The position numbers and the translations under genes were made by a program. The notes under the pieces were generated by a model. That model was not told the origin of the DNA, made no database searches, and was given only the letters and a program-made list of their open reading frames with translations. This document shows, piece after piece, positions 1,674 to 21,568 of a DNA stretch of 45,475 nt (position 1 is its first letter; each line of letters starts with the position of its first letter). This DNA comes from Candidatus Woesebacteria bacterium (GTDB lineage Bacteria > Patescibacteriota > Microgenomatia > UBA1400 > UBA1396): NCBI GenBank assembly GCA_963749595.1, contig CAVVNJ010000010.1:131223-176697 (forward strand), written 5' to 3'.

Positions 1674-1680
1674 CGAACCC

Positions 1681-1709
1681 TTGCCGGGCGACTGATTACT
1701 CGGTACCAT
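1681..1709 (+). promoter_or_regulatory. sigma70-like promoter close to start codon
   Basis: TTGCCG(1681-86)-17 bp-TACCAT(1704-09), 9 nt before ATG 1719. Confidence 0.55.
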
Positions 1710-1718
1710 GTCTATAGT

Positions 1719-3128: not shown

Positions 3129-3129
3129 T

Positions 3130-3654: not shown

Positions 3655-3666
3655 TTTCGCCAGCTG

Positions 3667-3740
3667 GCGCGCATAGCTCAATTGGTTAGAGCACGAAGCT
3701 TATACCTTCGCGGTTCGGGGTTCGAGTCCCTGTGCGCGCA
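3667..3740 (+). tRNA. tRNA-Ile (anticodon UAU)
   Basis: Cloverleaf: acceptor GCGCGCA/TGCGCGC, D arm GCTC/GAGC, anticodon stem CGAAG/CTTCG with loop CT-TAT-AC (3701-3703), T arm CGGGG-TTCGAGT-CCCTG, discriminator A, no encoded CCA. TATAAT at 3650-3655 upstream. Confidence 0.92.
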
Positions 3741-3743
3741 CTC

Positions 3744-3772
3744 TTGCGCCGAGTAAATTTATTTGCCATACT
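3744..3772 (+). promoter_or_regulatory. sigma70-like promoter, leaderless configuration
   Basis: TTGCGC(3744-49)-17 bp-CATACT(3767-72), 6 nt before ATG 3779. Confidence 0.6.
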
Positions 3773-3778
3773 AGCGTC

Positions 3779-4663: not shown

Positions 4664-6551
4664 ACGACTTAACCGATTGCAACTTTCCGGCCGGGCTTTA
4701 TTGAGGCTTTTTCTGGCTTTCGTGGTGGTTTTCGGGTTCACTTTCGATTTGCTGCTAACTACGAAGCCAACCACATCTAGGGCCACTACCTGTTCCGGAG
4801 GGTATTGTGAATCAGCCGGAGCCTGTTGGCCGCCTGGTTTTGAGGGTCATAATAGCGATACTGGTTGTCGGTATACTTGCGCCAACGGAAGCTGGTCCAA
4901 TCCTATTTGTGATTTGACCGCTCAGGAAGTTGCTACCGCCCAAGCTCGGAAAGAAGAATACGAGCGGGCGGCGGCCGGAACGAAGACCACGACTGGTAGC
5001 GGAGGTTCAACTGGCGGCGGCGTATCAACGTTGTGCGGTTCTTCTTTCCCGACGGCCACGGTTTGTCGCGGCAAGCCCATGTTTTCTACCCAGCAGGGGT
5101 ATGTTTGTGTGCCAACCAGTGGCGACGCTTGTGCCGCTCGGGAACCAGGTTCGGTTGGCGCTGACGCTGATGGCGATGGTAGGTATGAAGCGGCGCTTAG
5201 CACCGCGTCAGCGGCTGAACTGCAGAGTGGTGCTTGTGACGTGGTGCTAAGCTGTGCTTGTCCGTCAGGGGTTAAAAAAACTTGTTTGTCAGCTGGCGTG
5301 CTGGGATCCGCTAGCGCGGAAAGTTATTGTGCTCGTCGAGTTTGCCCAGCCGTGGGAACAGGTGGAAAGGTCTGCGAGCCGGGTTCAGTAAACTGTATTC
5401 CTGGGACTACGAGCGGTTACTTATGTAAGCCGGATGGTACTGGTTTCATGACCGAAAGTGTCCATGCTCATGCTTGTGGGGCAACGAGTGGAACCTCTTA
5501 TTGCGATGGGGGTGCTGCTGGAGCTACCTGTCCCGTAGGTATGACCCGAACGGAAACAGCTGGTGGAGCGGTTAATTGTTGTGGCACGAAAAGAGATTGT
5601 GAACGTACTGGCGCCGATTGTTCTTCGACTTCAATTAAGATCGAAACCACCATTACCACTTGTGGTTCGACGCAAATCCGCCGTTTTATTGGTTGCGGTA
5701 CTCAGCCTGGTAAGCCGGAGGGCCAAGCCAACTGCTACAACATTTGTCAGAGCGGGGTAGTGCGAAATAACGTCTGTATTTACGAGCCCGGTCTTTCCTG
5801 TGGCGCCAAGGCTGGTGTGGCTCCCCAGCCCACTCCTGTTCCACAAACCCAGACCGTGGTTCAAACACCGGCACCAACACCCACCCCCACCCCTAGGCCC
5901 AAAGCCACTTGCGGACAGAACTGTAATCAAAATACCCCCTGCCAGAACTCGCTGGCCTGTGTCAGTGGGGTCTGCCGATCCACCGCCTGTTCAGTCAGTG
6001 AACAAAATGCCCAGTGCGTCTGTCAGCCGCCACCCCCAGTAGCGCCGGTTTGCGTGGCCATCTATGCTTCCAAGACTGATATTAAGCTGGGTGACGAGGT
6101 AACTTTCACCTGTGGCCGCGTACCCAATACCGAGCGCTATGAATTTCGTTATGGCTTTACAACTCTAAAGTCGGCTTTCAACGAAGCAACTTTAACGGAG
6201 TTGCCGCCAGCTACGGCGACCTCCAATATTTCCCAAACCATCAAAGTCGATAAGATAGGGCGATTCCTGATTCAGTGCCGACCCTGTGGGGCCAATAATC
6301 TTTGCCAGGCTTGGGAACCCCTGGGTGGACAGATTGGTGGACCCACACTCGCGCCAGAAGAATCAGTTGTTTCGGCCACGCCTACACCCACGCCTGCGCC
6401 AACTCCAACTTTAGAGCCGGGAGCTACTCCTACGCCCACTCCAGAACCGACTCCGACTCCGACTCCAGAACCCACGTCCACGCCTACTCCCACGCCCACG
6501 CCCACGCCTCGGCCAACTCTACCAACAGATTTTAACGGGAACATGCCATGA
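4650..6551 (+). CDS. Large cysteine-rich secreted/surface protein with PT repeats
   Basis: N-terminal TM/signal, dozens of Cys in small modules, PTPTP linkers. Confidence 0.8.
   Translation: MLNFRRLNRLQLSGRALLRLFLAFVVVFGFTFDLLLTTKPTTSRATTCSGGYCESAGACWPPGFEGHNSDTGCRYTCANGSWSNPICDLTAQEVATAQARKEEYERAAAGTKTTTGSGGSTGGGVSTLCGSSFPTATVCRGKPMFSTQQGYVCVPTSGDACAAREPGSVGADADGDGRYEAALSTASAAELQSGACDVVLSCACPSGVKKTCLSAGVLGSASAESYCARRVCPAVGTGGKVCEPGSVNCIPGTTSGYLCKPDGTGFMTESVHAHACGATSGTSYCDGGAAGATCPVGMTRTETAGGAVNCCGTKRDCERTGADCSSTSIKIETTITTCGSTQIRRFIGCGTQPGKPEGQANCYNICQSGVVRNNVCIYEPGLSCGAKAGVAPQPTPVPQTQTVVQTPAPTPTPTPRPKATCGQNCNQNTPCQNSLACVSGVCRSTACSVSEQNAQCVCQPPPPVAPVCVAIYASKTDIKLGDEVTFTCGRVPNTERYEFRYGFTTLKSAFNEATLTELPPATATSNISQTIKVDKIGRFLIQCRPCGANNLCQAWEPLGGQIGGPTLAPEESVVSATPTPTPAPTPTLEPGATPTPTPEPTPTPTPEPTSTPTPTPTPTPRPTLPTDFNGNMP
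6376..6525 (+). repeat. Coding Pro-Thr dipeptide tandem repeat
   Basis: Degenerate ACNCCN repeats encoding TPTPTPAPTP... Confidence 0.8.
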
Positions 6552-7420
6552 ACCGAGCTCAATTACGTCAGCACATTCGTACCTATCGGCCAATAGTGGT
6601 TGGGGTTGGTATTTTTGTCCTCGCCCTGCTGTCTTTTGCCGTTATTTACTTTATTCGCATCGCACAACAGGCTCTTGCACCGACAGCTCCAGTTTCCATT
6701 CCCAAGGCAGCGGTCGAGGTCTGTTCCACTCAATTTGAGATTCCGATGGAATGTATCTCGCTGGAGCCAAGTGGGGAGGTGGCGAAAGACGCTGAAGTTA
6801 CTTTCGCCTGTGACGGACTGGCCGGGGCGGATAAGTTTATCTTTAGCTTCCGTAGCTCTGCCGATGAAGATTTTACGGTAATTGCTTCCGGATCGGCCAA
6901 GGTTTCTCCACTTTTTATTATCGGCGATTATGTCGACGTTCGCTGTCAGCCCTGTGCCGGTGAGTTTTGTGCTTCAGAAGCGAATGTCACTTCCCGCTGC
7001 AGTTATAATTTCGTTGCCCCACCAACACCAACTCCCACACCAACGCCCACGCCAACCCCGACTCCAACGCCTACACCAACACCAACTCCGACCCCCACAC
7101 CCACTCCCACGCCGGTGCCGCAGTGTGACAGTGACTGTTCGACCGACAGCGATTGTCCCGGAAGTCTGGTCTGCTCGGAAGGATCCTGCCGGAACGCGGT
7201 GTGTACCGAGGCAACCAACTGTATTTGTGCCACTCCGACCCCCACGCCCACTCCGACGGCCACGCCGACTCTTCCCCCGGAGGTTGAGATCACTCCCACC
7301 CCAATACCGGAAGAATTGCCGCAAGCTGGCGCCGCCACCCAGACCGTTGCCTTGGCCGTGCTTGGCTTTGGCGCCCTGTCGCTAGGCGTCAGCCGCATCA
7401 GGCTGGTCAAACGGCACTAA
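6548..7420 (+). CDS. Cys-rich surface protein with PT linker and LPQAG sorting-like C-terminus
   Basis: ATGA overlap; N-terminal TM; Cys modules; long (PT)n; ends LPQAG-hydrophobic-RIRLVKRH. Confidence 0.8.
   Translation: MNRAQLRQHIRTYRPIVVGVGIFVLALLSFAVIYFIRIAQQALAPTAPVSIPKAAVEVCSTQFEIPMECISLEPSGEVAKDAEVTFACDGLAGADKFIFSFRSSADEDFTVIASGSAKVSPLFIIGDYVDVRCQPCAGEFCASEANVTSRCSYNFVAPPTPTPTPTPTPTPTPTPTPTPTPTPTPTPTPVPQCDSDCSTDSDCPGSLVCSEGSCRNAVCTEATNCICATPTPTPTPTATPTLPPEVEITPTPIPEELPQAGAATQTVALAVLGFGALSLGVSRIRLVKRH
7019..7115 (+). repeat. Coding (Pro-Thr)n tandem repeat
   Basis: About 16 consecutive PT units with varied codons. Confidence 0.85.
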
Positions 7421-7427
7421 TTTTCGC

Positions 7428-7456
7428 TTGCACTAGCGCCTGAATCTTGGCATACT
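7428..7456 (+). promoter_or_regulatory. sigma70-like promoter, leaderless configuration
   Basis: TTGCAC(7428-33)-17 bp-CATACT(7451-56), 6 nt before ATG 7463. Confidence 0.6.
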
Positions 7457-7462
7457 GGTCTC

Positions 7463-9100
7463 ATGAGTTCGGCCCCTGCCTTTAAGACCGTCGTTTTTTT
7501 TGATCAGGATGAAGTTTTGGTTTTTGTCACGGCTAAAAAAGGCTGGCGCCAGCTGGCGGGTACTCATTCCCTAAGTCAACTTCCGGATAAAGAAATAATC
7601 GATGCGGTTAAAGACGGGAACGTCTTAGCCGTGGTTTCAGATGAAGCTTGTGGACACCTGCAACTCATCGTTCCCAATAAGAAAGAAGCCTACGCGGATG
7701 AAAATATCGGCCGACTTCTTGGCGAACAGCATATCGATATCAACGTTTATGAGTTTGCCTCGCAGCGTTTTCCCCTGGGTAGAGATGAGATTCAGGTCAG
7801 TGTGTCTGGTATTGAAAAAGAAGTTTACCAAAAAGTCGAACGCTGGGTTTCCGCACTGGGCAGCAAAAAGTTTTGGTTACTGCCTTTCGGTTGGTTCGTT
7901 TCGGCGCTCAAGTCGGTTGAGCCAGCCCTGATTGCGGTAATTTTGAATCCCAAACGAGTGTTGGTTTCCCATCACTATCTGGGTGTCGATGATGCGCGGG
8001 TGATCCCGTTGGCTGATCTACGCGATTACGTTTTGGCCCGTAAAGAAGAGCGGAAAGAAACCCACCTGCTTTATCTGCAGGGTGCTCCGGACCTACGTCG
8101 GGAGACGACCAAACAGATGGGAGAGGCCATGGCCGTCCATACCCTCTTGCCGGATGAAGGTGAGAATGCTCTTTTGGCCGTAGTAGAGGCGGTGATGGCC
8201 AAGGGCGGGGAAACGTTGAGTGAACTGTTGCATTTTGTGGGCGAAGCGGAGTCGGCAGAAAAGGCAACTAAAACTGCGAAAGCTGAAGTAGTAAAAACAG
8301 AAGTGGTCCAAGAAGAGTTAGCACCTGAAGTTGCGGCCGCGACCAGTGTTTCTGTTGCCGAGGAGCTGCCCAAGCCAGAGTTGCCGACATCAGTAGAGAA
8401 TGTTGAGCCGGTGGCGCCATCCGAATCAGCCGCTCGGACCGTGGTTGAGGTTGAAGAGGAGCCGCCCGTAGTTGTGGCCCCCGCGGTCGAGGTGCCGGTG
8501 GTCACAGAGCTTCCCGCTGCCAGTGAAGCTCCAACCGACTTAGTCAGCCAACTTCATGAGGGTCCAGTGGTTAAAGATAATACCGACCGCTATTTGGAAA
8601 TGCCGGAAAAAAGATCGCGCTGGAAGGGACCAATCTTGGTTTTCTTGGCCGTGACGATTATTACCGGTGTTGTTGGTGGGGCGGTCTTCTGGTCGCGTCA
8701 GGTTCGGCCGCCAGGGCCGCCTTTACTACCAGCCGCCGGTCAGTCGACTCCGACACCGGAGCCGACTCCCACCGCTACGCCCACCGCCAGCCCGGCGGCC
8801 GAGTTGAGCGCAGCGGAAAAGAAACAAACTAGTATCGTTGTCCTGAATGCGACTGGCGTGGCTGGCCTGGCCGGCAAGGTGAAGACGAAGCTGGCCGAAT
8901 CAGGCTGGACCAATGTCCGCACCGGTAATGCTGAGGGTAGCTATGATGGTGCCACTTTTATTTACACGGCTAAGGAAGAATTAATACCCATTTTGTCAAA
9001 GGATCTGGGTGTCGAGTTGAAGCGCGCAGCCCAAGTGAAGGAATCATCGGCCGCTGATGCCACGGTCGTGATTATCTTGGCCGAACGCCTTTCGCTCTGA
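7463..9100 (+). CDS. LytR C-terminal domain-containing membrane protein
   Basis: C-terminal 'IVVLNATGVAGLAGKVKTKLAESGW...TGNA...TVVIIL' is LytR_C-like, preceded by a TM and an acidic Pro-rich linker. Confidence 0.8.
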   Translation: MSSAPAFKTVVFFDQDEVLVFVTAKKGWRQLAGTHSLSQLPDKEIIDAVKDGNVLAVVSDEACGHLQLIVPNKKEAYADENIGRLLGEQHIDINVYEFASQRFPLGRDEIQVSVSGIEKEVYQKVERWVSALGSKKFWLLPFGWFVSALKSVEPALIAVILNPKRVLVSHHYLGVDDARVIPLADLRDYVLARKEERKETHLLYLQGAPDLRRETTKQMGEAMAVHTLLPDEGENALLAVVEAVMAKGGETLSELLHFVGEAESAEKATKTAKAEVVKTEVVQEELAPEVAAATSVSVAEELPKPELPTSVENVEPVAPSESAARTVVEVEEEPPVVVAPAVEVPVVTELPAASEAPTDLVSQLHEGPVVKDNTDRYLEMPEKRSRWKGPILVFLAVTIITGVVGGAVFWSRQVRPPGPPLLPAAGQSTPTPEPTPTATPTASPAAELSAAEKKQTSIVVLNATGVAGLAGKVKTKLAESGWTNVRTGNAEGSYDGATFIYTAKEELIPILSKDLGVELKRAAQVKESSAADATVVIILAERLSL

Positions 9101-9109
9101 GGAGCGGCC

Positions 9110-9457
9110 ATGGAAAGACCGATATTCATGATCGGCTGGGAATTTCCACCGCACCATAGCGGTGGCTTGGGCGTTGCTTGTCAGGGTATGGCGCGGGGTT
9201 TATTGGCCTTAGATTTACCCGTCGCTTTTGTCTTGCCCAAGTCGATTCCTGACGGCCAGGTATACGCCCAATCAAAACACCAGCTGGCCCCTGGTTTATC
9301 GATGGACCTAATTCAAGTCAACTCCAACCTGGAGCCCTATTGGCAGCAGACCGCCGATTCGCCGCGCGCGGATATGATCAGCGAGGCATACCGGTACGGC
9401 CAAGTGGTTGGCGAGTTGGCACCACGGTTTGATCCGGCGGTTCTCCACGCCCACGAC
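9110..9457 (+). pseudogene. N-terminal part of GT4/glycogen-synthase-like glycosyltransferase, truncated at junction
   Basis: 'MIGWEFPPHHSGGLGVAC...VLP...LHAHD' (family continues HAHDW); downstream sequence is the antisense of a LacI gene. Confidence 0.85.
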
Positions 9458-10449
9458 GACCAAAATTGGATGAATGACCTCGCTGACAGTTCTGACCTTG
9501 CCGCTAATCAACGCCAGCAGTTGCGTCGCCATGCAGCGGCCGACTTCGGCCGCGCGGTAGTCTACCGTGGTCAAGGTGGGATCTAACGCGAGGCAAAGGT
9601 CCGTGTTGTCATATCCGACCACGGCAACGTCGTCGGGAATCACCGAGTCCGCGCCCTCGCAGAATCTTCATCGCCCCAGCGGCCATGTAGTCATTGGCAG
9701 CAAAAGACCCCGTCCGGCGTGAATTCCGTCAGAATGCTTTCCATGGCGGTCGTCCCGCTTGGGATCGTAAAGTCGCCGTAGCGCTTGGTTACCTTTCTGA
9801 CCCCCGCCGCAATGAGCCCTTCAAAAAACCCCCGTTCGCGCTCGATCGCATCCACGTGCGTTTCGGGCCCATTGATCATTGCCACTCGCTGGCATCCCCG
9901 TTTGGCAAACTGCTGGGCGACCAACTGTCCGCCGTGGTAATTATCCAGATCCACATAGTTTACGTCAGCTCCAAAGCAGGCCGGCCGCATCATCACGTAA
10001 GGAAACGAGCGTTGCCGAAGCGGATAGAGAAATGGGTAGTCGCGAAGGTATTGCGGGACGATGATGATGCCATCGAGGGTCCGGTCTCCCACAACGCGCT
10101 CAAAGTAGTCCATCAAGTCGGGATCTTCATGCGATTTGACATCAAGCCGCAAGCTGTAGTTGGCTTGGTAGCCCACTGCCAAAACGCCCTGCTGCAAATA
10201 GTAAAATAGCGACGTCTTGTGAACGATGTTCGTTATATTAACCGACGTCATCATCAGCAAAGCGATGGTGTTTGACTTGCCTGTGTTCAGCGTGCGCCCG
10301 ATGCGATTGGGCACATAGTTCAGCCGCCTGGCGCACTCCAAAACCCGCGCGCGCGTGGATTCCTTAACCTCTCCCCGGTTCAAGGCCATTGAAGCCGTAG
10401 CTACCGATACTTTCGCAAGCTCCGCTACTTCCTTAAGGGTGGCCCTCAT
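9455..10449 (-). CDS. LacI-family transcriptional regulator (frameshifted near 9650-9695, last codons lost at junction)
   Basis: HTH 'TLKEVAELAKVSVATASMALN'; C-terminal 'IPDDVAVVGYDN...PTLTTVD...IHPILVV' lies in another frame. Confidence 0.9.
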
Positions 10450-10722
10450 TCCGATAGCATGACCCGCGAAGGAGCGGTGTCACCGGCTCGGACGGATTCG
10501 CGAAATTCCGGCTGACGATGAATCCAGCCGCGCAGGTTGTTGTAGCTAACTTCAAGCTGACACTGGGTTTTGAGGATTGTGCGGACCGTGGTGAGGGGAA
10601 TGCCTTCCTTGACGGCATTGATGACAAAATCCCGGTAGGGTGTCAGTTTGCTCGCCCGTCGCCGCTTTTGTTCGGCGAGGGCGCGGGCTTCTTTTAGCAA
10701 CTTGCTCGGCGTCAACTTTCAT
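10446..10722 (-). CDS. Small basic HTH-like hypothetical protein
   Basis: 'SKLTPYRDFV..AVKEGIPLTTVRTIL..QCQLEVSYNNLRGWI' is HTH-like; ATGA overlap with LacI; start at 10715 (TTG) or 10722 (ATG, needing a frameshift). Confidence 0.55.
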
Positions 10723-10733
10723 AGTCAACTACA

Positions 10734-10814
10734 TGTCATTCTGACAATTGGATATACAATATCAATAAATCATTGATACCATAATTCTTATTGCATTGCT
10801 TGACAGTATGTCAA
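10734..10814. promoter_or_regulatory. AT-rich control region with three inverted repeats
   Basis: TGTCA-TTC-TGACA (10734-46), TATCAAT-AAATC-ATTGATA (10760-78), TTGACA-GTA-TGTCAA (10800-14). Confidence 0.55.
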
Positions 10815-10983
10815 ATAGTCTCGCTATCGACCCTAAAGGCAGCCGCGCTGGAATACGTCGCCCAATGAACGATCGATTTTCGGGAAGTATTGCTCGGGAT
10901 CCGCGAGAAGTGGACTTGGCGATTCTGTGAGGCTCGCGCGGGCTCCTTGACGGTAAGTCATACCCGTGGTACTACCAGGCAAT

Positions 10984-11062
10984 GAGAGGAAGCTCGGGCG
11001 CGTTTCGGTTGAGGAACTGGATCAAGCGATTGAGGGATTGAACGAGATTCATCGGCGCGTAG
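10984..11062 (+). pseudogene. C-terminal remnant of MazF/PemK-type toxin
   Basis: Reads 'ERKLGRVSVEELDQAIEGLNEI', resembling PemK/MazF C-termini; no N-terminus present. Confidence 0.45.
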
Positions 11063-11184
11063 CTTTTTAAACGGTTAGAGTGCTCTGCGAAGGGTGGCGC
11101 GCTTCGGACCTGCTGCGATAAGCCTCCTACGACTGCTAACGTGCGCAAATTCCATTTTTAGGCGTGCCCGAGGCACGACCTGAA

Positions 11185-11718
11185 CTATTCCGGGGGAGAT
11201 TCGCCGCGAGCTTCGAACCACTTTCGCAAGAAGAACAAATCTCCGGCATCCTTCTCGCGGCGGGTGTTCTTCTTCATGCGCCAAAGGAGGCGAGGCGAAG
11301 CGAACGGAATTTCAACATCGCCGATTTTTCGGACGATGATATCCTTGGATGCTTCCTCATAACCGATCCCGGAAGCGGATTTCATCAGGTCGACGACAAT
11401 CTCATCCGCCACGCGAACAATGGTGTATTTGGAGACGTCCCCGGGGTCGAGTTCGTCCGCCGCACGGTCGGGGAGGCTCCGAAGCGCCATATAGATCTTC
11501 GCTTCGTTCTCAGGCGCGGTGTCCATGAGGATATCAAGGTCCCCGGTGAATCTCGGATATCCGGCATGGATGATTGCGTAACCGCCGATCACCAGGTAGC
11601 GTGCGCCGAGTTTGTTTAGTATCCGGCAGAGCGCGACGAGGTCCTCTTCAACCGGCGGTCTCGGGACTAATGCCGATTCTTCCCCGCTGCCGCTTCGGCG
11701 ATCTTCGTCATCAGCCAA
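11185..11718 (-). CDS. Nucleotidyltransferase-family protein
   Basis: 'YLVIGGYAIIHAGYPRFTGDLDIL' (GG..DxD) and 'MKKNTRREKDAGDLFFL'. Confidence 0.85.
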   Translation of the reverse strand: MADDEDRRSGSGEESALVPRPPVEEDLVALCRILNKLGARYLVIGGYAIIHAGYPRFTGDLDILMDTAPENEAKIYMALRSLPDRAADELDPGDVSKYTIVRVADEIVVDLMKSASGIGYEEASKDIIVRKIGDVEIPFASPRLLWRMKKNTRREKDAGDLFFLRKWFEARGESPPE

Positions 11719-11891
11719 TCGTTTGCCTCCTCATGTGAGTGAAACCGATAAACTCCTTTGGGAACGCCGAGCGCTTGCCGAAACGAGGCGCCTGCCTGCT
11801 GGACTCCCATACCAAAGCGGAATCCGTCAGCGACTCGTCTCCGCCCGACCGTCTTGCCGGGTGTTTCCTCGAGGTTGATGATCGGATCCAT
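11667..11891 (-). CDS. Small protein upstream of nucleotidyltransferase (putative TA partner)
   Basis: 74 aa, 'PKGVYRFHSHEEANDW' motif, overlaps the NTase start. Confidence 0.7.
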   Translation of the reverse strand: MDPIINLEETPGKTVGRRRVADGFRFGMGVQQAGASFRQALGVPKGVYRFHSHEEANDWLMTKIAEAAAGKNRH

Positions 11892-12281
11892 GAATGGAGT
11901 CTAACACGGTGGCCAGACGCACTCAACAGTTGCGAGACGACTCACGGCAGGGTCATGCGATTTGTTCCAGGGTCACCAATCTCGCAGAGCCCGCCGACAG
12001 GTGGGATAATCCTGTCGCTCCGACCAAACGCGACAGGATGAAAATAGTCCGGGCGGTGCTCAAGACAGAGTCGCGGAATGCCGACCCCTCAACGATCAAC
12101 CCTCAACCATTTTTCCGACTGCCTGCGCGCCAGCGCCACGCCAGGGAAGCCCAATCTCGCAGAGTCTGCCCGGGAGGCGAATAAATCCTGTCGCGTGAAA
12201 GACGGAAGATTGTCCATTGTTTTAAGGCTTTTTTGGGTGCGGGGACACCTAGATTATGATAAATGGAAACACTTTCCTGTT

Positions 12282-12593
12282 ATGAGCAACGAATCATCCG
12301 ATCAAGAGATTCATTCCGCTGAGAGCATCGAATCGCTCGATCGGCGCTTGTTTTTGCGGAGCCTTGGAAAGTGGTCGGGCGCAGTGATCTTAGCGGTGAC
12401 CGGAGGCGTCTGGCTTACCTCTTGCGTTGGCAGCTGGATCAACCGCGGGGGAGTCGGTGGAGGTGGCGGATGGATCAATCGCAGAGGAGTCGTTGGAGGT
12501 GGCAGCTGGATCAATCGCAGGGGAGTTGTTGGGGGTGGCGGATGGATCAACCGGCGTGTGGGCGGCGGAAGCGGCTGGATCAATCGCTGGTAG
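12282..12593 (+). CDS. Gly-rich repeat peptide, putative triceptide (GrrA/OscA-like) RiPP precursor with Tat-like leader
   Basis: MSNESS...DRRLFLRSLGKWSGAVILAVTGGVWLTSCVGS followed by five WINR motifs with Gly-rich spacers, ending WINRW. Confidence 0.75.
   Translation: MSNESSDQEIHSAESIESLDRRLFLRSLGKWSGAVILAVTGGVWLTSCVGSWINRGGVGGGGGWINRRGVVGGGSWINRRGVVGGGGWINRRVGGGSGWINRW
12435..12590 (+). repeat. Coding tandem repeat, 36/36/36/33-bp period
   Basis: TGGATCAAYCG at 12435, 12471, 12507, 12543 and 12576. Confidence 0.9.
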
Positions 12594-13704: not shown

Positions 13705-14721
13705 TCAGAAGCCCGGCAATCCGTCGCGGATGTGCTGAGAGAAGTCGGGCGCAGCGTCGGCAGCGTTCGCGGCGGCGTTGACGAGCGCACGGCTTTTCAA
13801 GTCGGCGAACGGCAGACCGCCTGTGGCCAGCGCGCCACGCTCGAACAACAATTCGTCGCCTTTGCCATTGAGCAAGATACGCCAGTCCCAAGGGATGCGC
13901 TGCGCGGCGTCACGCTGTGTGCGGATGGTCGTCGTGCAGTTGGTCGTCACAGCATTGTACCAGCGCGGGCGGACGTGGAGTTCATTCATCGCGGTGATGT
14001 ACTCCATGAACCGCTCGCGCGCTTTCTCCGGCGACGCGGTTGTTCGGTAGAGATAGACGTCTTCGCTGCGGCGAAAGTTTGTCCGTACGCGAATGACATC
14101 GCGCTCGTCGGCGACGATGTAAATCAGCTCGTACTGCCGGTAGAAGCCGCCGATCGCTGAATAGTTCTCGCCGATTTCCCTCCGCGTCTCGATGGAAAAG
14201 CAGAGCGGCGGCGCGTCGGCAAACTGGAAGCTCGCGATGGGATGCGCCATCCACGGCGAGCCCCAGTAGTTGATGGCAAGGTCCAGCCCGGTGATCTGCG
14301 AAAGTCGCACCGTGCGCGTCTCCCAATGCGGGGTGTAGTCGGTATCGGTGCGGTAATCGAAGTTGCGGACATTGTGCAGCGTCACCTCGTCACCGTTGAT
14401 CTCCGCCCACGGCTCTTGCGCCACGTCGGGTTGCCACGCGCGGGTACTGCTGGGTTTCAAGGTGAGCCACCATCCGAGCACCAGGGCACAGCCCAACAAG
14501 GTGACACCGAGTTTTCGCCACGCACCAGGCACGAAGACGATCGCAGCCAGCAGCGAGAGCGCGAATACCCAGGCCGCCTCAGCGTTCAGCACCGGAAAAT
14601 CGTAGGAGAGCGCGCCGAAGGCCCAGAGGGCAAAACCGAGAGCGAGGAGCCAGGCAATGGTCCAACCCGCCACGCGCACCGCGCGAAAGACCAAAGGTAT
14701 GCGGCGAGTCGGTGAATTCAT
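13705..14721 (-). CDS. DUF4105 / Lnb N-terminal domain membrane protein
   Basis: Three N-terminal TMs, 'LHNVRNFDYR', 'MAHPIASF', 'YNAVTTNCTT'. Confidence 0.88.
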   Translation of the reverse strand: MNSPTRRIPLVFRAVRVAGWTIAWLLALGFALWAFGALSYDFPVLNAEAAWVFALSLLAAIVFVPGAWRKLGVTLLGCALVLGWWLTLKPSSTRAWQPDVAQEPWAEINGDEVTLHNVRNFDYRTDTDYTPHWETRTVRLSQITGLDLAINYWGSPWMAHPIASFQFADAPPLCFSIETRREIGENYSAIGGFYRQYELIYIVADERDVIRVRTNFRRSEDVYLYRTTASPEKARERFMEYITAMNELHVRPRWYNAVTTNCTTTIRTQRDAAQRIPWDWRILLNGKGDELLFERGALATGGLPFADLKSRALVNAAANAADAAPDFSQHIRDGLPGF

Positions 14722-14910: not shown

Positions 14911-15413
14911 CGGGAAGATTGGTGAGTTCACCGAGTGAGCAACGGCACTTCGGCCAGACCGACCTATCAGCGGTCGATCCAACCGCCACCACCCCAGCAA
15001 TCCAGTGTCGCGGGTCGCCGCTTTTTCAATCGATGATTCGCTGCTCATAGGAAAAACGTCTTTTCTCTGATTAATTCTCTCCCGATTTTCAACTGTCCAT
15101 CACAGAGAACACCGGGAACACAGAGGACTGGGCAAGATCTTTTGCAAGGCAATTCCTGTGGGGGAGCGCAGGAATTGCCTCGTAAATTTGGTTCAGGTGA
15201 TCGATTCCGATTCGGAGACTCACCAGGTTCGATTGTGCCCTGTCAACTCTCAACCATCCTCGCCGCAGAAGAGGCCGGAACACAGAAGGACAGCCCCAGT
15301 CATCAACCACTTTGTTCGATCGTAGCCCTTCTGCGAATCACCCTCATCCGCGCCCGCCCTCGGAATTATTTTTCGGATTGACGGCGTGGCGTGCTGTGAA
15401 CGATGTGGTCCTC

Positions 15414-16181
15414 GTGGAGTTTGCTGATCCCACAACGAGGGCGCGCGACAGCCTGGTCGTCATCGAACGGGTTAACAAGTTCTATGGGGACCTTCACGTG
15501 CTCAAGGACATCAATACGACGGTCGCCCGCGGCGAGGTCGTCGTGGTGATCGGGCCCTCCGGTTCCGGGAAGTCGACGCTCTGCCGAGCCATCAATCGAC
15601 TCGAAACTATCGACTCCGGAGTCATATCGATTGATGGCGAACCGCTGCCTCAAGAGGGCAAAGAACTCGCCAAGCTTCGGGCCGACGTCGGGATGGTTTT
15701 TCAGTCATTCAATCTCTTCGCGCACAAGACCGCCCTCGAGAATGTGACTCTCGGGCCGATCAGAGTTCGAAATATGAAACGCGAGGACGCTCGCGAAAAG
15801 GCCAGGTCTCTCCTGAAGCGGGTAGGGGTGGCGGAGCAGGCGAACAAATACCCGCATCAGCTTTCCGGCGGCCAGCAGCAGCGAGTGGCTATTGCCCGCT
15901 CGCTGGCGATGGATCCCAAATTGATTCTGTTGGACGAACCAACCAGTGCGCTCGACCCGGAAATGATCAGCGAGGTTTTGGACGTCATGGTCGACCTGGC
16001 GAAGGGAGGCATGACGATGGTCGTCGTCACTCACGAGATGGGTTTTGCGCGGAATGCCGGCAGCCGGGTGCTCTTCATGGCGGACGGGCAGATCGTTGAG
16101 GAGGCTCCGCCGGCGGAGTTCTTTACGCGTCCCAAAAATGAAAGGGCCGCCGATTTCTTGTCGAAAATCCTGGCGCATTAA
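15414..16181 (+). CDS. gluA: Glutamate/amino acid ABC transporter ATP-binding protein
   Basis: Walker A GPSGSGKS, signature LSGGQQQR, Walker B LILLDEPTSALDPE, VVTHE; start uncertain (GTG 15414 chosen). Confidence 0.9.
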   Translation: MEFADPTTRARDSLVVIERVNKFYGDLHVLKDINTTVARGEVVVVIGPSGSGKSTLCRAINRLETIDSGVISIDGEPLPQEGKELAKLRADVGMVFQSFNLFAHKTALENVTLGPIRVRNMKREDAREKARSLLKRVGVAEQANKYPHQLSGGQQQRVAIARSLAMDPKLILLDEPTSALDPEMISEVLDVMVDLAKGGMTMVVVTHEMGFARNAGSRVLFMADGQIVEEAPPAEFFTRPKNERAADFLSKILAH

Positions 16182-16220
16182 TCGGTTGAAAAACGTGCGA
16201 TTGTTCAAGAAAGAGAAAAG

Positions 16221-17114
16221 ATGCGGAACAAACTACTCCTAGTCCTCAGCCTGGCCGTAGCCAGCGCACTTTGCCTAAGTTCCTGTGGCGACTCCGGGAA
16301 ACCGTCGGCCGGCCACGATTCCGGGGCAAACGGTCCCTACCAGCTCACCGTGGCGAAAGATCCTAAATTCGAAGCGGGCACGACGATGGAGCGACTTTCC
16401 AAGGCCAAAAAGATCACGATTGGCACCAAGTTTGACCAGCCGTTGTTCGGCCAGAAAGGACCCGATAACAAGCCGCGAGGATTCGACGTGGCCATTGGTT
16501 CGCTCGTCGCGGCCCGGCTTGGAATTCCCTACGAAAACATCGAGTGGGTAGAAACCGTTTCCGTAAATCGCGAGCCCTTCCTTCAGCAAGGCCGGGTGGA
16601 TATCGTGGCGGCGACCTATACGATCAACGATGAACGCAAGAAAGTCGTCGACTTTGCGGGCCCCTACTACGAGGCGGGTCAGTCGCTCATGGTTCTCAAA
16701 TCCAACAACGATGTAAAAGGCCCAGAGGACGTCCGGGACAAACCGGTCTGTTCGGTGGAAGGGTCGACACCTGCCGCCAACATTGTCAAACAATATGGGG
16801 CCAAGCTGGTCGCGACGGACGCCTACTCGAAATGTCTCGAGCCGCTGCGTAACGGGCAAGTCGTGGCGGTGACCACCGACAACGTGATCCTGGCCGGCTT
16901 CGTCGATCAGAACCCCGAATTCAAAATCGCCGGCGAGCCTTTCACCAAGGAGCCATACGGAGTCGGCCTGAAGAAGGATGACGACAAATTCCGCGCGTTT
17001 CTCAACGATGTCCTCGCAGAGGCTGAGAAGGACGGAACGTGGAAAAGGCTTTGGGAAGAGACGGCGGGCAAGGTTCTGCCGACGCCTCAGCCGCCGGCGG
17101 TCGATCGGTATTGA
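16221..17114 (+). CDS. gluB: Glutamate ABC transporter substrate-binding lipoprotein
   Basis: Lipobox LSSC; 'IGTKFDQPLFG', 'ATYTINDERK', 'AVTTDNVIL', 'EPYGVG'. Confidence 0.9.
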   Translation: MRNKLLLVLSLAVASALCLSSCGDSGKPSAGHDSGANGPYQLTVAKDPKFEAGTTMERLSKAKKITIGTKFDQPLFGQKGPDNKPRGFDVAIGSLVAARLGIPYENIEWVETVSVNREPFLQQGRVDIVAATYTINDERKKVVDFAGPYYEAGQSLMVLKSNNDVKGPEDVRDKPVCSVEGSTPAANIVKQYGAKLVATDAYSKCLEPLRNGQVVAVTTDNVILAGFVDQNPEFKIAGEPFTKEPYGVGLKKDDDKFRAFLNDVLAEAEKDGTWKRLWEETAGKVLPTPQPPAVDRY

Positions 17115-17147
17115 CGAGCCGACTGACCGGATCGAGGAGCCATTCGT

Positions 17148-17795
17148 TTGAGTGTTGTCTTTGATAACTTCGGTCTGTTCTGGCTTGGTTTCGTCTCCAC
17201 TCTGCACCTGCTGATTGTCTCGGGCTTTGGTGCACTGTTCTTAGGCACCGTGGTCGCGTCATTGCGCGTGTCGCCGTTCGGTTCCTTTCGCGCTTTAGCC
17301 GCAATCTATACCGAGGTCCTGCGCAATACCCCTCTCACTCTGGTATTCTTTTTTTGCGCATTCGTTCTCCCGAAAATCGGAGTGATCCTGGACTTTCAGT
17401 TCGCGGCGATTGTGGCGCTGACCGTTTACACGGCTCCGTTCATTGCCGAAGCTTTGCGCTCGGGAATCAACGGCGTGCCCGCCGGTCAGGCGGAAGCCGC
17501 GCGCAGTATCGGCTTGAGGTTCGACCAGGTGCTCATCCTCATTATTTTGCCGCAAGCCTTTCGCATGGTGATTCCGCCGCTGGTGAATGTGTTCATCGCG
17601 TTGACGAAAAATACCTCGGTGGCGGGTGGTTTTTTCGTCTTCGAACTCTTCAGTGTCGGGAAACGTCTCGCTAATGCGCATGGTTCAGCGGTGATTCCGA
17701 TTTTGCTCGGTGTGGCCTGCTTTTACCTGCTCATTACGGTTCCCCTCGGCCAGTTGTCTCATCGCCTCGAGGCCAAGGTGGCGCTGGCTCGATGA
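17148..17795 (+). CDS. gluC: Amino acid ABC transporter permease
   Basis: 'RNTPLTL', EAA loop 'EALRSGINGVPAGQAEAARSIG', 'LTKNTSV'. Confidence 0.9.
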   Translation: MSVVFDNFGLFWLGFVSTLHLLIVSGFGALFLGTVVASLRVSPFGSFRALAAIYTEVLRNTPLTLVFFFCAFVLPKIGVILDFQFAAIVALTVYTAPFIAEALRSGINGVPAGQAEAARSIGLRFDQVLILIILPQAFRMVIPPLVNVFIALTKNTSVAGGFFVFELFSVGKRLANAHGSAVIPILLGVACFYLLITVPLGQLSHRLEAKVALAR

Positions 17796-18625
17796 ACTCC
17801 TCGGTCCTTTACGACGCGCCCGGCCCCAGGATGCGGCGGATATCGCGCATCGTTTCCATTGTTGGTCTCTTGGCGATGGCCGGCGGGATCGCATGGTTGT
17901 TAGCCATCCTCGCTGCACCCCGCGAAACACAGCCCGGGATCGTGCAACCCGGGTTGTTCGACTCGTCCCGCTGGAACATCTTCTATGAGCCCTTCCGTGG
18001 CTACAGTCCCGTTCAAGTGTGGAATGGCATTCTCAGCGGGCTCCTGGCCACTTTCGGCGCCGCGGTCGTCGCGGGCATTCTGGCGATGTGCTTGGGCCTG
18101 GTCATTTGCTTGTTGCGACTTGCCAAAAGAAAGTGGCTGCGCGTGCCCACCACAATCCTCCTGGAATTCGTGCGCGGCATGCCGGTCCTGCTGATGATGC
18201 TCTTTATCCTGCTGGTGTTCGGGATGTCCACCTTCTGGGTGGTGGTGGCGGCGCTGGCGATTTACAATGGCGCCATCATCGGCGAGGCCATTCGCGCGGG
18301 CATCCAGTCCCTGCCACGGGGACAACGCGAGGCGGGTCTATCTCTTGGACTGAGCAGCCTGCAGGTGAGGTTGATTGTCGAGTTGCCGCAGGCGCTACGC
18401 CAAATGACGCCGATCATCGTAGCTCAACTCGTGGTTTTGCTTAAGGATACTTCGCTGGCTTACATCATCGGCTATGAGGATCTCCTAAAGAAGGTCACAA
18501 ACCTGTCGAACTTCTACGGTGATCGGTACTTCTTTTCGGTGTTCTTTGTCGCCCTGATCGCCTATCTGATCGTGAATCTGAGTCTGTCGTGGTTCGCCTG
18601 GTATCTGTCCAGGCACGTGCGCTAG
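17792..18625 (+). CDS. gluD: Amino acid ABC transporter permease
   Basis: 'SSVLYDAPGPR', 'RGMPVLL', 'GQREAGLSLG', 'LLKDTSL'. Confidence 0.9.
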   Translation: MNSSVLYDAPGPRMRRISRIVSIVGLLAMAGGIAWLLAILAAPRETQPGIVQPGLFDSSRWNIFYEPFRGYSPVQVWNGILSGLLATFGAAVVAGILAMCLGLVICLLRLAKRKWLRVPTTILLEFVRGMPVLLMMLFILLVFGMSTFWVVVAALAIYNGAIIGEAIRAGIQSLPRGQREAGLSLGLSSLQVRLIVELPQALRQMTPIIVAQLVVLLKDTSLAYIIGYEDLLKKVTNLSNFYGDRYFFSVFFVALIAYLIVNLSLSWFAWYLSRHVR

Positions 18626-18813: not shown

Positions 18814-19713
18814 ATGAAAACCATTGCCCTCGTAGGCTTGGTCGCCGGCGCGCTCACGAGCACCGGATTCTCTCAAGCTCCCGTGGAAACGCCGCCGGAA
18901 ATGGCCGAAGTCGTCGCGAATGACCGCGCTTACGAAGCCGCCTATGCGAAGTCCGATGTCGAAGCGCTCGTGGCTTTTTTCACCGACGACGCGGACTACA
19001 CGACGAAAGAGGGGCGCACTTTCAGCGGCCGCGCGGAGATCGAGGCCGCGATCCGCGCCGGGTTGACGGCCAATCGCGGATCGAAGCTTGCGATCAATGC
19101 GGAGACTGTCCGTGTGCTCGGGCCCGAGAGTCTGATGGAGAAAGGTTCGACGATGGTAACCTCGAAGGACGGTGAAACCAACGGCGAACTTTATACCGCC
19201 ATTCTCATCAAGAAGGATGGCAAGTGGAAGATCAGTCAGCTGATTGAATCACCCCTGCCGGACGTTTCGCCGCACGACCGGCTTTCGGAGCTCGCCTGGC
19301 TCGTGGGCGATTGGGAGGAAACCGACAAGTCGGATGATCTCTTCATACGCAGCACGTATTCGTGGGGGCGCGGCGGAAGTTTCCTTACCCGCAGCGTGAC
19401 GGTGAAGCGTGGCGACACGGTGACGCTCGAGGGTTGGCAGATCATCGGGTGGGATCCGATCGAGGAACGCCTCCGTTCATGGACCTTCGACAGCGAAGGC
19501 GGATTTGCCGAAGGGTACTTCACCCGCGAGGGAAGTCGCTGGCTGCTCCGCGAGACGGGCGTCACCCCCGAGGGCAGCCGGACCGGAGCGGACCATACCA
19601 TTACCAAGATCAGCGGGGACCGCTTTACATGGGAATCGAACAACCGGACGCTCGACGGCGACCCTCAGCCAGGCATCGGCCCCATCCGGATTGATCGAGT
19701 AGAGGGAAATTGA
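18814..19713 (+). CDS. Secreted SgcJ/EcaC (NTF2-like, DUF4440) domain protein with second beta domain
   Basis: Signal peptide; 'YEAAYAKSDVEALVAFFTDDADY...GRAEI...GKWKI'; second domain 'LAWLVGDW...IGWDP...SWTFDSEGGF'. Confidence 0.85.
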   Translation: MKTIALVGLVAGALTSTGFSQAPVETPPEMAEVVANDRAYEAAYAKSDVEALVAFFTDDADYTTKEGRTFSGRAEIEAAIRAGLTANRGSKLAINAETVRVLGPESLMEKGSTMVTSKDGETNGELYTAILIKKDGKWKISQLIESPLPDVSPHDRLSELAWLVGDWEETDKSDDLFIRSTYSWGRGGSFLTRSVTVKRGDTVTLEGWQIIGWDPIEERLRSWTFDSEGGFAEGYFTREGSRWLLRETGVTPEGSRTGADHTITKISGDRFTWESNNRTLDGDPQPGIGPIRIDRVEGN

Positions 19714-19717
19714 TGCC

Positions 19718-21568
19718 GTGCTCCGAAGACTTCCATCCGTCCTTGCCCTGACGACGGTGCTTGCCCTGTTCTTTGAGAGCGCGGCGGTTTATGCGGGGCG
19801 TGGCGGTGGGGGCGGACGAGGGGGTGGCGGGGGAAGCTTTTCGCGGCCTTCCGGGGGCGGCTCCCGTCCCTCAGGCGGGCATGTCTCACGACCCTCGGGA
19901 GGGGGAAACGTCTCGCGCCCGTCTGGCGGGAACGTCTCGCGCCCGTCGGGTGGGAACGTCTCGCGGCCCGCGCAACTTCCTTCCAGCAGCGTCTCACGAC
20001 CGAGTAATGGACGTGTGCCATCCACTCCTTCGAAGCGGCCCACCGGCGGCCAGCGTCCAACGGGCGGAGGGAGCGCCGCGCAGCTTCCGTCCAGTAATCG
20101 GCCGAGCACAGCGAAGCGACCTTCCAAGCCTTCCAACCAACCGGCAACACGCCCGGGAGGCGGGGAGCGTCCGTCACAAATGCCAACGCGTCCCGGGGGT
20201 GCGGAGCGGCCTGAGACACGTCCAGGAGGTGGTGTTGCGGAGCGACCGACGCAAAAGCCGACGCGTCCCGGGGTTGGCGAGCGGCCTGAGACGCGTCCGG
20301 GAGGCGGCCTGGCGGAACGCCCGGAGGCGGGCCCAGGGGGGCGGCCCGCGCAGCTTCCCGCCAAACCCGGGACGGGAGTAGCCGAGCGTCCCGGAGGGAA
20401 ACCCAGCCAACACCCGAGCGCGGGCGAGGTGGGGAATTTTCTGGGTATCGCCGGGGGCGCGGCGGCCGGGGGCGCGATTGGCGGCGCCCTGGCCAATCGC
20501 CCGACGCAGCTTTCAGCGGAACGTCCCGGACTCGGCGAGCGTCCGGCGCGACCGGAGGAGCGGTCCAACTGGGGGGAGTGGTCACAGAATCGCGGCGGTC
20601 AGTGGCAACAGCGCGTGGACAATCGAAACGACGCCTGGAACCAGCGCGCCGACAACCGTCAAGAGGCGCGTAGCAACTTCCAACAGACCCGCGACGAGCG
20701 CTGGAACAACCTGGAAAGCGCCCGGGAAGACCGTCAGGCATGGCGCGATCAGAATCGCGAGGATTGGCAGCAGCACCGTCAGGATCTGTGGAACTACCGT
20801 GGGGAGCGCGCGGAGGAGGTCTGGGACAACGCCCGCGATTTTTACGACGGCGTGTTTGATGATCGCTGGTGGGGTGTCTGCGGCTGGGGCGGGGCGTGGG
20901 TCGGCAATTATCCCATCAATCCCTGGTGGTGGTGGGCGCCGGCCGCGTTTGGGGCCGCCGCGGTCTTTGTCGACGTGGTCACCCCGGATCCGATCTACGT
21001 GGATTACGGTATGAATGTCATTTACGAGGGCGACACGGTCTATGTGAACAATCAACCGTTTCCCACCGAGCAATACGTCCAACCGGCGATCGACCTCGCC
21101 ACGAGTGTCGAGCAACCGCCGCCGCCGCTGCCGGCCGCGACGCCTGCGCCCACGACCCAACCGGCCGCCGCTCCGACTCAGGAATGGATGCCGTTTGGCG
21201 TCTTTGCGCTTGCGCAGGAAGAGAAAGGCGACCCGGCCATGTTCTTCCAGATTTCCGTCAATCGCGCGGGCATCATTAGCGGCGCCTACACGAGCGTCAT
21301 CACCGGTGACCAGCGGCCCATCGCCGGGCAGGTGGACAAAACCACTCAGCGCGTCGCGTGGCGGATCGGCGACAATACGGAGACGATCTTCGAGACCAGC
21401 CTCGCGAATCTCACGCAGGACGTCTCACCTGTCGCCATCCACTTTGGAAAGGCGCAAACGCAGGTTTGGCTGCTTGTCCGCATGCCCGAACCGGCCCTTG
21501 GCGATCACTCGCAGCAGCTTCCCGAAGCGCCCAAAACGCCGCCGCCACTCAGCAAGCCAAAGGCATAG
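19718..21568 (+). CDS. Secreted low-complexity repeat protein (SRPSGG / RPGG-ERP repeats, Trp/Arg/Gln-rich segment, globular C-terminus)
   Basis: Signal peptide, repeats, 'PWWWW', 'YVDYGMNVIYEGDTVY', 'EWMPFGVFAL...GAYT...RVAW'. Confidence 0.8.
   Translation: MLRRLPSVLALTTVLALFFESAAVYAGRGGGGGRGGGGGSFSRPSGGGSRPSGGHVSRPSGGGNVSRPSGGNVSRPSGGNVSRPAQLPSSSVSRPSNGRVPSTPSKRPTGGQRPTGGGSAAQLPSSNRPSTAKRPSKPSNQPATRPGGGERPSQMPTRPGGAERPETRPGGGVAERPTQKPTRPGVGERPETRPGGGLAERPEAGPGGRPAQLPAKPGTGVAERPGGKPSQHPSAGEVGNFLGIAGGAAAGGAIGGALANRPTQLSAERPGLGERPARPEERSNWGEWSQNRGGQWQQRVDNRNDAWNQRADNRQEARSNFQQTRDERWNNLESAREDRQAWRDQNREDWQQHRQDLWNYRGERAEEVWDNARDFYDGVFDDRWWGVCGWGGAWVGNYPINPWWWWAPAAFGAAAVFVDVVTPDPIYVDYGMNVIYEGDTVYVNNQPFPTEQYVQPAIDLATSVEQPPPPLPAATPAPTTQPAAAPTQEWMPFGVFALAQEEKGDPAMFFQISVNRAGIISGAYTSVITGDQRPIAGQVDKTTQRVAWRIGDNTETIFETSLANLTQDVSPVAIHFGKAQTQVWLLVRMPEPALGDHSQQLPEAPKTPPPLSKPKA

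Follow-up and report, generated by a model that had tools for sequence, protein, structure and literature searches.

A twin-arginine W-I-N-R repeat peptide as a probable displaced precursor of a conserved four-gene radical SAM/SPASM cassette

The 103-amino-acid (aa) open reading frame (ORF) P0001 lies at positions 12282–12593 of a 45,475-nt stretch of DNA, here called the window, which was taken from contig CAVVNJ010000010.1 (C10) of assembly GCA_963749595.1 (G000), filed as Candidatus Woesebacteria. The ORF encodes a peptide with a twin-arginine leader and five W-I-N-R motifs, and it is probably a working but displaced precursor of a four-gene cassette, in which the leader would be bound by a partner protein, the core modified by a radical SAM/SPASM enzyme, and the product exported by the twin-arginine translocation (Tat) system, the window copy itself being matured in trans. 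The cassette has a conserved order: an exported SnoaL/NTF2-like protein, the precursor, a 270-aa partner and the radical SAM/SPASM enzyme. Coordinates are positions in the window unless a locus (L) is named.

The precursor ORF and its cassette

The features of the precursor ORF are the following.

12282–12593, plus strand: precursor-type ORF P0001, 103 aa plus stop (homologues, dN/dS)
12339–12362, plus strand: twin-arginine motif D-R-R-L-F-L-R-S, residues 20–27, after an acidic N-region (residues 1–19)
12363–12386, plus strand: family-specific leader motif L-G-K-W-S-G-A-V, residues 28–35, predicted partner contact (conservation, predicted complex)
12378–12425, plus strand: hydrophobic stretch, residues 33–48, ending in the lipobox-like L-T-S-C, residues 45–48 (sequence reading)
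12426–12590, plus strand: core, residues 49–103, with five W-I-N-R motifs, Gly/Val spacers and a final W (sequence reading)
12428–12550, no strand: 36-bp tandem DNA repeat under the motif array (Tandem Repeats Finder)

Translation and Tandem Repeats Finder confirmed what the original prediction, made from the letters of the window alone, had described, i.e. the ORF, its R-R-L-F-L motif (of the type R-R-x-F-L), L-T-S-C, and five W-I-N-R motifs on a 36-bp repeat. The motifs start at W52, W64, W76, W88 and W99 (first bases 12435, 12471, 12507, 12543 and 12576), at distances of 36, 36, 36 and 33 bp, and the last residue is W103. The underlying repeat has a period of 36 with 3.4 copies, 85% matches and a score of 176. 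After the twin-arginine motif runs the hydrophobic G-A-V-I-L-A-V-T-G-G-V-W-L, within a stretch rich in Gly, Ala and Val. The ATG at 12282 matches the N-termini of the homologues, and a longer frame from 12078 was rejected as the true start and regarded as upstream read-through.

The sequence is of low complexity and borne by a repeat, and the protein had no Pfam or NCBIfam match even at E≤10, as would be expected of a chance open frame over the 36-bp repeat. That this is not a gene is nevertheless scarcely credible: homologues share a conserved, non-repetitive leader, gene order is conserved across phyla, and the substitutions are mostly synonymous. From a collection of 5.8 billion proteins, 912 of 1415 candidates matched the window protein at E≤0.01, and where the source had named them they were called ‘hypothetical protein’, save one evident mis-annotation. 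Judged by these matches the precursor family is large, and the earlier term ‘orphan’ holds for the window neighbourhood, which is devoid of cassette genes, and not for the family.

For the gene neighbourhoods, one genome per species was scanned and the best 80 of 106 relatives were kept as loci; by taxon label 50 were from Verrucomicrobiota, 14 from Pseudomonadota (Competibacteraceae, Thiodictyon and others), 12 from Acidobacteriota, and four from other groups. One locus (L047) was set aside because no precursor ORF could be recognised where its contig ends, leaving 79 loci for counting. Neighbouring ORFs were called and clustered, and hidden Markov models (HMMs) of the three recurrent neighbours were scored on every locus. 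A SnoaL_3/DUF4440-type (NTF2-like) gene with a signal peptide was located directly upstream on the same strand in 76/79 loci, a gene for a protein of ~270 aa directly downstream of the precursor in 57/79, and a ~390-aa radical SAM/SPASM gene after the partner gene in 56/79, or in 49 of the 64 well-flanked loci (with 600 nt or more upstream and 2500 nt or more downstream). The arrangements in these 64 were as follows.

All four genes: 46/64
SnoaL-like gene plus precursor only: 14/64
Without the SnoaL-like gene only: 2/64
Without the partner gene only: 1/64
Precursor alone (L002): 1/64

Loci with the full cassette came from Verrucomicrobiota (37), Acidobacteriota (11), Pseudomonadota (2), and other groups (2). 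The homologues are thus found together with a radical SAM/SPASM enzyme in most loci, and this co-occurrence supports the earlier claim of a substrate of such an enzyme, similar to peptides that are made on ribosomes and modified after translation (RiPPs). Of 101 sampled genomes from the host order, eight had both precursor and enzyme. The enzyme alone was present in two (both of these matches start at model position 89) and the precursor alone in one, and the remaining 90 had neither gene; since related genomes are not independent, these counts are a description and not a statistical test.

No protease or peptide exporter was conserved among the cassette neighbours. Genes for an AcrB-type RND efflux pump were near 18 loci and for membrane-fusion proteins near 17, almost all of them in Verrucomicrobiota (e.g. 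L033 13589–16738, L018 6187–7416), and they probably reflect lineage synteny and do not belong to the system. Two neighbour clusters (6 and 7) consisted of ORFs on the strand opposite to the SnoaL-like and radical SAM genes and were dropped. Among the variants, L050 of Competibacteraceae has two precursor genes in tandem (9568–10264), and in L027 (6948–9291) as well as L050 the radical SAM gene is located upstream of the SnoaL-like gene, with no partner gene detected.

Motif statistics were calculated for 79 precursors, comprising 78 loci and the window, with L067 left out because its called ORF was truncated; alignment A4 omits L037 and L067. Residues R21, R22, F24, G29, K30, W31, S32 and A34 were invariant in a 22-sequence alignment, and R21, R22, W31 and S32, together with the repeat residues W and N, in a 78-sequence alignment. 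The W-x-N motif houses 434 of the 517 core Trp residues; I (208) and V (195) together fill its second position in 403 of the 434, and the residue following the motif, position 4, is mainly R (306) or G (101). Each precursor has three to ten such motifs, mostly four to six. The cores consist of 39.3% Gly, 14.5% Arg, 13.0% Trp and 11.2% Asn, with 2.3% Ser and 0.0% Cys.

Enzyme, partner and export signal

The enzyme family carries C-x3-C-x2-C near the N-terminus and nine further Cys residues in a SPASM-like arrangement, all invariant in 29 sequences, and the SPASM domain TIGR04085 was recognised on the cassette enzyme (52.1 bits, cut-off 27). Named enzyme families scored on it as follows.

anSME (TIGR03942): 141.7 bits, cut-off 349.45
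DynA: 132.2 bits, cut-off 450
DarW: 118.6 bits, cut-off 650
DarE: 104.0 bits, cut-off 650
GrrM/OscB (TIGR04261): 68.4 bits, cut-off 310
YhhB, AmcB, XyeB and FxsB: 53–62 bits, cut-offs 370–450

Against Protein Data Bank (PDB) sequences, the enzyme-family profile matched anSME (4K36) with E = 3.1e-28 and the cyclophane synthase ChlB with 1.7e-11. Because none of the named families was reached and the matches are to anSME and ChlB, the cassette enzyme is placed, on sequence grounds, as a distinct branch of anSME-like SPASM enzymes. Enzymes of daropeptides and of three-residue cyclophanes share an origin according to the available text of PMC12912966. Both belong to the same group as the cassette enzyme.

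For the partner protein, no match was obtained in Pfam or NCBIfam, and its profile found nothing significant among PDB sequences (best E 0.29). Its sole invariant Cys residues are four C-terminal ones, C-x2-C-x5-C-x12-C. When aligned with the enzyme by hhalign, the second halves of the two matched, including this Cys motif (probability 42.8%, E 2.5e-4). An AlphaFold model of the partner built with 27 sequences reached a predicted local distance difference test (pLDDT) of 88.4 and a predicted template modelling (pTM) score of 0.85, and its best Foldseek match was ChlB bound to ChlA (9gmc_A; E 1.3e-3, TMq 0.52), with the radical SAM enzyme TigE below ChlB among the matches. A structure search of the ESM Atlas gave radical SAM clusters with TM scores of 0.49–0.62, the value of 0.62 being for a radical SAM/SPASM cluster. 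The single scores are weak though concordant, and from these models we read the partner as a radical-SAM-fold paralogue without the SAM-cluster cysteines.

Binding of the leader was addressed by complex prediction, in which the partner of L066, a full-cassette locus, was combined (alignment A2) with residues 1–56 of the window protein (alignment A1). The interface score (ipSAE) was 0.77 (runs 0.75, 0.78 and 0.77), when the best of three controls reached 0.01. Of the reference sets for this score, 58 of the 80 solved complexes attain that mark, as do 2 of the 110 mismatched pairs; the calibration applies roughly here, since custom alignments served as input. The runs had at least 76% of contacts in common, with a partner-chain pLDDT of at least 64. 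Contacts of lowest error join leader residues W31–V35 with partner residues 144–155, which include Y145 (nearly invariant), V151 and P154; E156, F158 and H159 come next, and residue 159 is in the interface. The partner is thus predicted to bind the leader at K-W-S-G-A. This would account for the conservation of G-K-W-S-G-A, which exceeds the needs of a Tat signal.

Tat signals have a motif resembling (S/T)-R-R-x-F-L-K followed by a moderately hydrophobic stretch. The window leader fits this pattern with D-R-R-L-F-L-R-S and the hydrophobic run behind it, and R-R was invariant in 78 sequences. The Tat-target model of formate dehydrogenases (TIGR02811) matched 24/78 relatives at E≤1 (best E 5.5e-3) and the generic Tat signal model (TIGR01409) 17/78 (best E 4.4e-4); L027 reached 16.0 bits on a Tat-signal model with a cut-off of 16.7. 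TatC was above cut-off in all five host-lineage genomes, including G126, a 5.4-Mb Verrucomicrobiae metagenome-assembled genome (MAG), and it was not found in G000. Motif, weak model matches in relatives, and TatC together support the Tat-type leader of the original prediction.

A lipobox at the end of a signal has the consensus [LVI][ASTVI][GAS]C. L-T-S-C of the window copy agrees with it, and of the 79 precursors analysed no others than the window copy, L002 and L003 have this site. L017, L018 and L020 gave another match that contains Cys, and in most other homologues inspected the signal ends in an A-x-A type site just ahead of the first motif. An exporter of folded proteins would be well matched to a peptide that has become rigid in the cytoplasm, and the lack of a cassette protease or transporter would fit cleavage by general signal peptidases. 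The signals of the SnoaL-like companions, viewed by eye in L006, L022, L023, L024 and L027, have R-R in Verrucomicrobiota and a lipobox in Acidobacteriota, and those of Competibacteraceae look Sec-like; the constant is that the companion is exported.

According to the preferred reading, the partner would grip the leader in the cytoplasm at R-R-L-F-L...G-K-W-S-G-A, as in the predicted complex, and hand the Gly-rich core to the radical SAM/SPASM enzyme, which would modify every W-[I/V]-N. The likeliest product is a three-residue cyclophane with a Trp-to-Asn carbon-carbon bond, which we infer from the invariant W and N, the nearest named families of the enzyme, and the motif rule of triceptides. 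The leader would then act as a twin-arginine signal and the rigid product leave through Tat without a dedicated protease or exporter, as suggested by the motif, TatC in the host genomes, and the lack of conserved protease and exporter genes. Most relatives would be cut at A-x-A by signal peptidase I, and products of the L-T-S-C subclade may be lipid-anchored or stay tethered. The window copy, which is without its three cassette neighbours, would be matured by a cassette elsewhere in its true host.

Host, history and maturation of the window copy

The window does not come from one organism. Features at the joint and up to the precursor are the following.

9450–9470, no strand: junction of a lineage with a small genome of ~1 Mb (left) and Verrucomicrobial DNA (right), contig C10, about base 140,680
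9468–12256, no strand: rearranged Verrucomicrobial DNA replacing the SnoaL-like gene, in pieces of G126 contig C25 (92–98%)
12257–12281, plus strand: 25 nt ahead of the ATG, where alignments with the orthologous loci L002 and L003 begin (blastn)

Assembly G000 has 1.16 Mb in 12 contigs and is 83% complete, and sampled genomes of its order have 0.7–1.3 Mb. Positions 9468–45475 of the window are 92–98% identical to G126, and positions 1–9467 had no match to it. At about 9457 two gene fragments meet, the N-terminus of a starch-synthase-type gene on the left (in the ORF that begins at 9110, the Glyco_transf_5 match stops at residue 116) and a LacI-family gene on the right (the match stops at about residue 60 of ORF 9643–9308). 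Gene 4650–6548 on the left has relatives in 7/8 genomes of the same family, and gene 13705–14718 on the right in 0/20 genomes. The last ~37 kb of contig C10 stand apart from all other parts of G000 in tetranucleotides, with a GC content of 0.58–0.64 vs about 0.50; the window GC profile has no sharp step at the junction, and whole-contig tetranucleotides are more telling.

Contigs of two other public sequencing runs fit from 9457 rightward, and a listed loose end of one of them (X1) runs leftward of 9457 with unlike letters. None of the contigs of four runs spans 8000–9406, a hole that proves nothing by itself. Three repeats which recur in G126 were each present once in G000. One of the three is a ~316-bp element at 29671–29986, resembling miniature inverted-repeat transposable elements and having terminal inverted repeats, with one copy in G000 and about 25 near-full-length copies of 72–93% identity in G126. 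The contig is probably an assembly chimera, a recent graft being less likely, and the true host of the ORF is a Terrimicrobiaceae-like Verrucomicrobium and not the organism of G000.

Since the contig joins two unrelated organisms, searches for a partner enzyme in the ‘own genome’ mislead here. The three Radical_SAM matches in G000 are all on contigs other than that of the window. Profile searches of G000 gave no SPASM or GrrM (TIGR04261) match, and tblastn gave no homologue of the cassette enzyme, partner or SnoaL-like protein. On their face these blanks count against maturation by a radical SAM/SPASM enzyme, but to read them as absence of the maturase was rejected, because the portion right of the junction belongs to another organism, and they are uninformative.

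As a proxy for the true host, G126 carries a lone precursor copy, L002 on contig C19, and also a full cassette with its own precursor, L066 on contig C11. In addition, 8/14 of the well-flanked loci with SnoaL-like gene and precursor only share the assembly accession prefix with a full-cassette locus, and in three of five further genomes with such a lone pair the enzyme turned up at another place. Maturation of the window copy in trans, as proposed earlier, is in this way supported by proxy.

The same lone pairs bear on a different explanation, according to which the peptide is exported unmodified, as a Trp/Arg/Gly-rich envelope (lipo)peptide or a partner of the periplasmic NTF2-like protein, and the enzyme serves only the cassette-linked paralogue or is dispensable. 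The tightest linkage is indeed with the SnoaL-like gene (76/79) and not with the enzyme (56/79), the SnoaL-like gene and precursor stand without the others in 14/64 well-flanked loci, the enzyme was not found in two of the five further genomes, and the window subclade has changed its cleavage region to L-T-S-C. However, the partner-contact residues G29, K30, W31, S32 and A34 are invariant in lone copies too, the ipSAE of 0.77 was obtained with the window's own leader, only one of the nine precursor-holding genomes of the order sample was without the enzyme, and the enzyme-less genomes are metagenome bins. An unmodified product is therefore considered rather unlikely, and modification by the cassette enzyme is the reading retained.

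The history of the locus was traced with two orthologues. Upstream of 12257 the window, L002 and L003 all differ. In L003 (89% identical protein) the SnoaL-like gene is still present 44 nt upstream, and both L002 (92% identical protein, about 90% nucleotide identity for the gene) and the window copy have lost it. Pieces of 9468–12256 match contig C25 of G126, and the sequence from 12257 onward matches contig C19. Repeats of ~70–80 bp at 10986–11064 and 11976–12044 flank the DNA that replaces the SnoaL-like gene. Further copies are found in G126, on its contigs C25 and C19, and the repeat at 10986–11064 is present also in L003 at 240–312. At the position of the SnoaL-like gene two overlapping minus-strand ORFs (177 and 74 aa; 11185–11891) without Pfam match could be a small mobile two-gene module. 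The LacI-family regulator on the minus strand (9308–10449) is split into overlapping ORFs at 9691–10449 and 9308–9643; comparison with contigs from other runs gives single-base gaps at 9641, 9645 and 9699, and the split is a frameshift or sequence error.

Such surroundings would also suit a decaying relic, which has lost its SnoaL-like neighbour and promoter, is neither expressed nor matured, and retains an intact ORF only through recency. The orthologues become similar only 25 nt ahead of the ATG. Further upstream the DNA is pieced together from stretches that G126 carries in other places, and it includes the split LacI-family gene and short repeats. A scan of 11700–12282 for the sigma-70 consensus, a weak test, found no promoter-like site on the plus strand. 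Yet L002 in G126 keeps the same arrangement without SnoaL-like gene and with an intact ORF, the promoter scan was limited to the sigma-70 consensus, and the substitutions are unlike those of a free-running pseudogene. Between the window and L002, nonsynonymous divergence (dN) was 0.051 and synonymous divergence (dS) 0.202, giving dN/dS of 0.25 for the whole gene (0.40 for the window and L003), and in the core dN was 0.008 when dS was 0.196. This pattern indicates that the core of the window copy is under purifying selection, and the relic is an unlikely explanation next to the working, displaced precursor.

Further neighbours provided no cassette function. The HMMs of the cassette radical SAM enzyme, partner and SnoaL-like protein had no match at 2283–22593, in agreement with the earlier statement that no radical SAM gene is visible nearby. 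The ABC genes at 15312–18625 (SBP_bac_3, two BPD_transp_1 and ABC_tran) were rejected as a peptide exporter, as by domains they form a binding-protein-dependent importer. A secreted 299-aa DUF4440/SnoaL-like protein encoded at 18814–19710 (plus strand) was likewise rejected as the missing companion with 23 bits on the HMM vs 238–268 for true members, and its presence 6 kb downstream of the precursor is probably a coincidence. Beyond it, at 19718–21568 (plus strand), is a 616-aa ORF without Pfam match and with an unusually high GC content (0.64–0.70). Public sequencing runs were uninformative on expression: no RNA run was listed, and none had more than 0.25 of the sampled words.

Relation to known systems and significance

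No curated family model in Pfam or NCBIfam covers the precursor, partner or enzyme, and no description of the cassette was found in the searchable text of the literature, supplements not being covered. The closest parallels are the following.

The systems of GrrA/OscA1 with GrrM/OscB are alike in having a small precursor with Gly-rich C-terminal repeats and aromatic-X-X motifs together with a radical SAM/SPASM enzyme. The precursor model TIGR04260 weakly matched the repeat region of 32/78 relatives at E≤1, with 5.2e-5 as the best E; L056, the copy from C. flavus, scored 21.2 bits with a cut-off of 31, and scaling from the E-value would put the best relative below 31 bits too. The cassette differs in that it adds the exported SnoaL-like protein and the cluster-less radical-SAM-fold partner, and in its hosts, which are Verrucomicrobiota, Acidobacteriota and Pseudomonadota. 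By its model the family is not that of the GrrA/OscA type with which the original prediction compared the window peptide, as the window protein had no TIGR04260 match at E≤10 and the enzyme reached 68.4 bits vs 310 for GrrM/OscB.

Triceptides have aromatic-X-X motifs, each of which loses 2 Da on cross-linking, according to the available text of PMC12912966 and PMC9055067. Likeness to the triceptide enzymes (XyeB, ChlB, YhhB, AmcB, FxsB and MicB) lies in the repeated W-[I/V]-N and the SPASM enzyme, and ChlB in particular ranks second among the enzyme's PDB sequence matches and first among the partner's fold matches. In contrast, the models of named cyclophane synthases gave 50–70 bits, with cut-offs of 310–450. 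Proteolytic maturation of characterised triceptides takes place before the first motif, as described in the accessible part of PMC12912966. The cassette differs also here, as its leader is Tat-like and no cassette protease is conserved, and we infer the cross-link from the motifs and the related enzymes.

DarE, DarW and DynA are the best named families after anSME, and their substrates are likewise Trp-containing cores; dynobactin carries a Trp-to-Asn carbon-carbon link. Darobactin and dynobactin are single short products of 7–10 residues, unlike the 55-residue core of the window, and unlike them the cassette peptides have four to eight repeats (rarely three or ten), Gly spacers and an export signal. 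Anaerobic sulfatase-maturating enzymes (anSME) modify a protein before export and oxidise Cys or Ser. The anSME family (TIGR03942) is both the best family and the best solved-structure match of the cassette enzyme, which remains below its cut-off and would act on cores with 0.0% Cys and 2.3% Ser. Chaperones of the TorD/DmsD/NapD type are cytoplasmic and bind the twin-arginine leader until maturation is done, and the predicted partner–leader complex resembles them in concept only, as no relation of sequence or fold was found between them and the partner. The cassette thus works like GrrA/GrrM and other triceptide systems, yet both its precursor and its enzyme remain below the thresholds by which membership in those families is assigned.

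Several observations weigh against the reading of a modified, Tat-exported peptide matured in trans. The top-scoring named family, anSME, does different chemistry, and all the family scores of the enzyme are far below their cut-offs; a modification other than the cyclophane is possible. Fold scores of the partner are weak, with no Foldseek match at E≤0.001 and 43% in hhalign, and leader binding is supported by a model, which is not a demonstration. The window protein itself matched neither of the Tat models (TIGR01409, TIGR02811) even at E≤10, and TIGR04260 as little. The window copy is without the SnoaL-like neighbour kept in 76/79 loci, is located just downstream of a rearranged stretch, and has no recognised sigma-70-like promoter. 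Finally, the maturase of the exact organism of the window is unseen, and two of the five lone-pair genomes, both metagenome bins, gave no enzyme.

A more far-reaching reading, offered tentatively and on present evidence rather doubtful, is that the ORF stands for a so far undescribed kind of peptide, modified by radical SAM chemistry and exported. Its leader would be both the handle of a two-protein maturase, made up of the SPASM enzyme and the cluster-less paralogue as leader-binding chaperone, and a Tat signal that makes a dedicated protease or transporter needless. An NTF2-like protein would be the co-worker, and lone copies with a lipobox instead of A-x-A would be variants anchored in the membrane and matured in trans. 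Its product would be four to eight Trp-Asn cyclophane beads on polyglycine spacers, working in the periplasm.

The interest for the fields of ribosomal peptide natural products and protein export comes from the cassette and not from the lone copy itself. If the reading is true, soil Verrucomicrobiota, Acidobacteriota and some Gammaproteobacteria would own a portable four-gene system for making multi-ring, Gly-spaced Trp peptides and exporting them via Tat. In this system one leader would serve as both enzyme handle and Tat signal, a radical-SAM-fold protein without SAM cluster would be used as a substrate-binding subunit, and the peptide would have an obligatory periplasmic NTF2-like companion.

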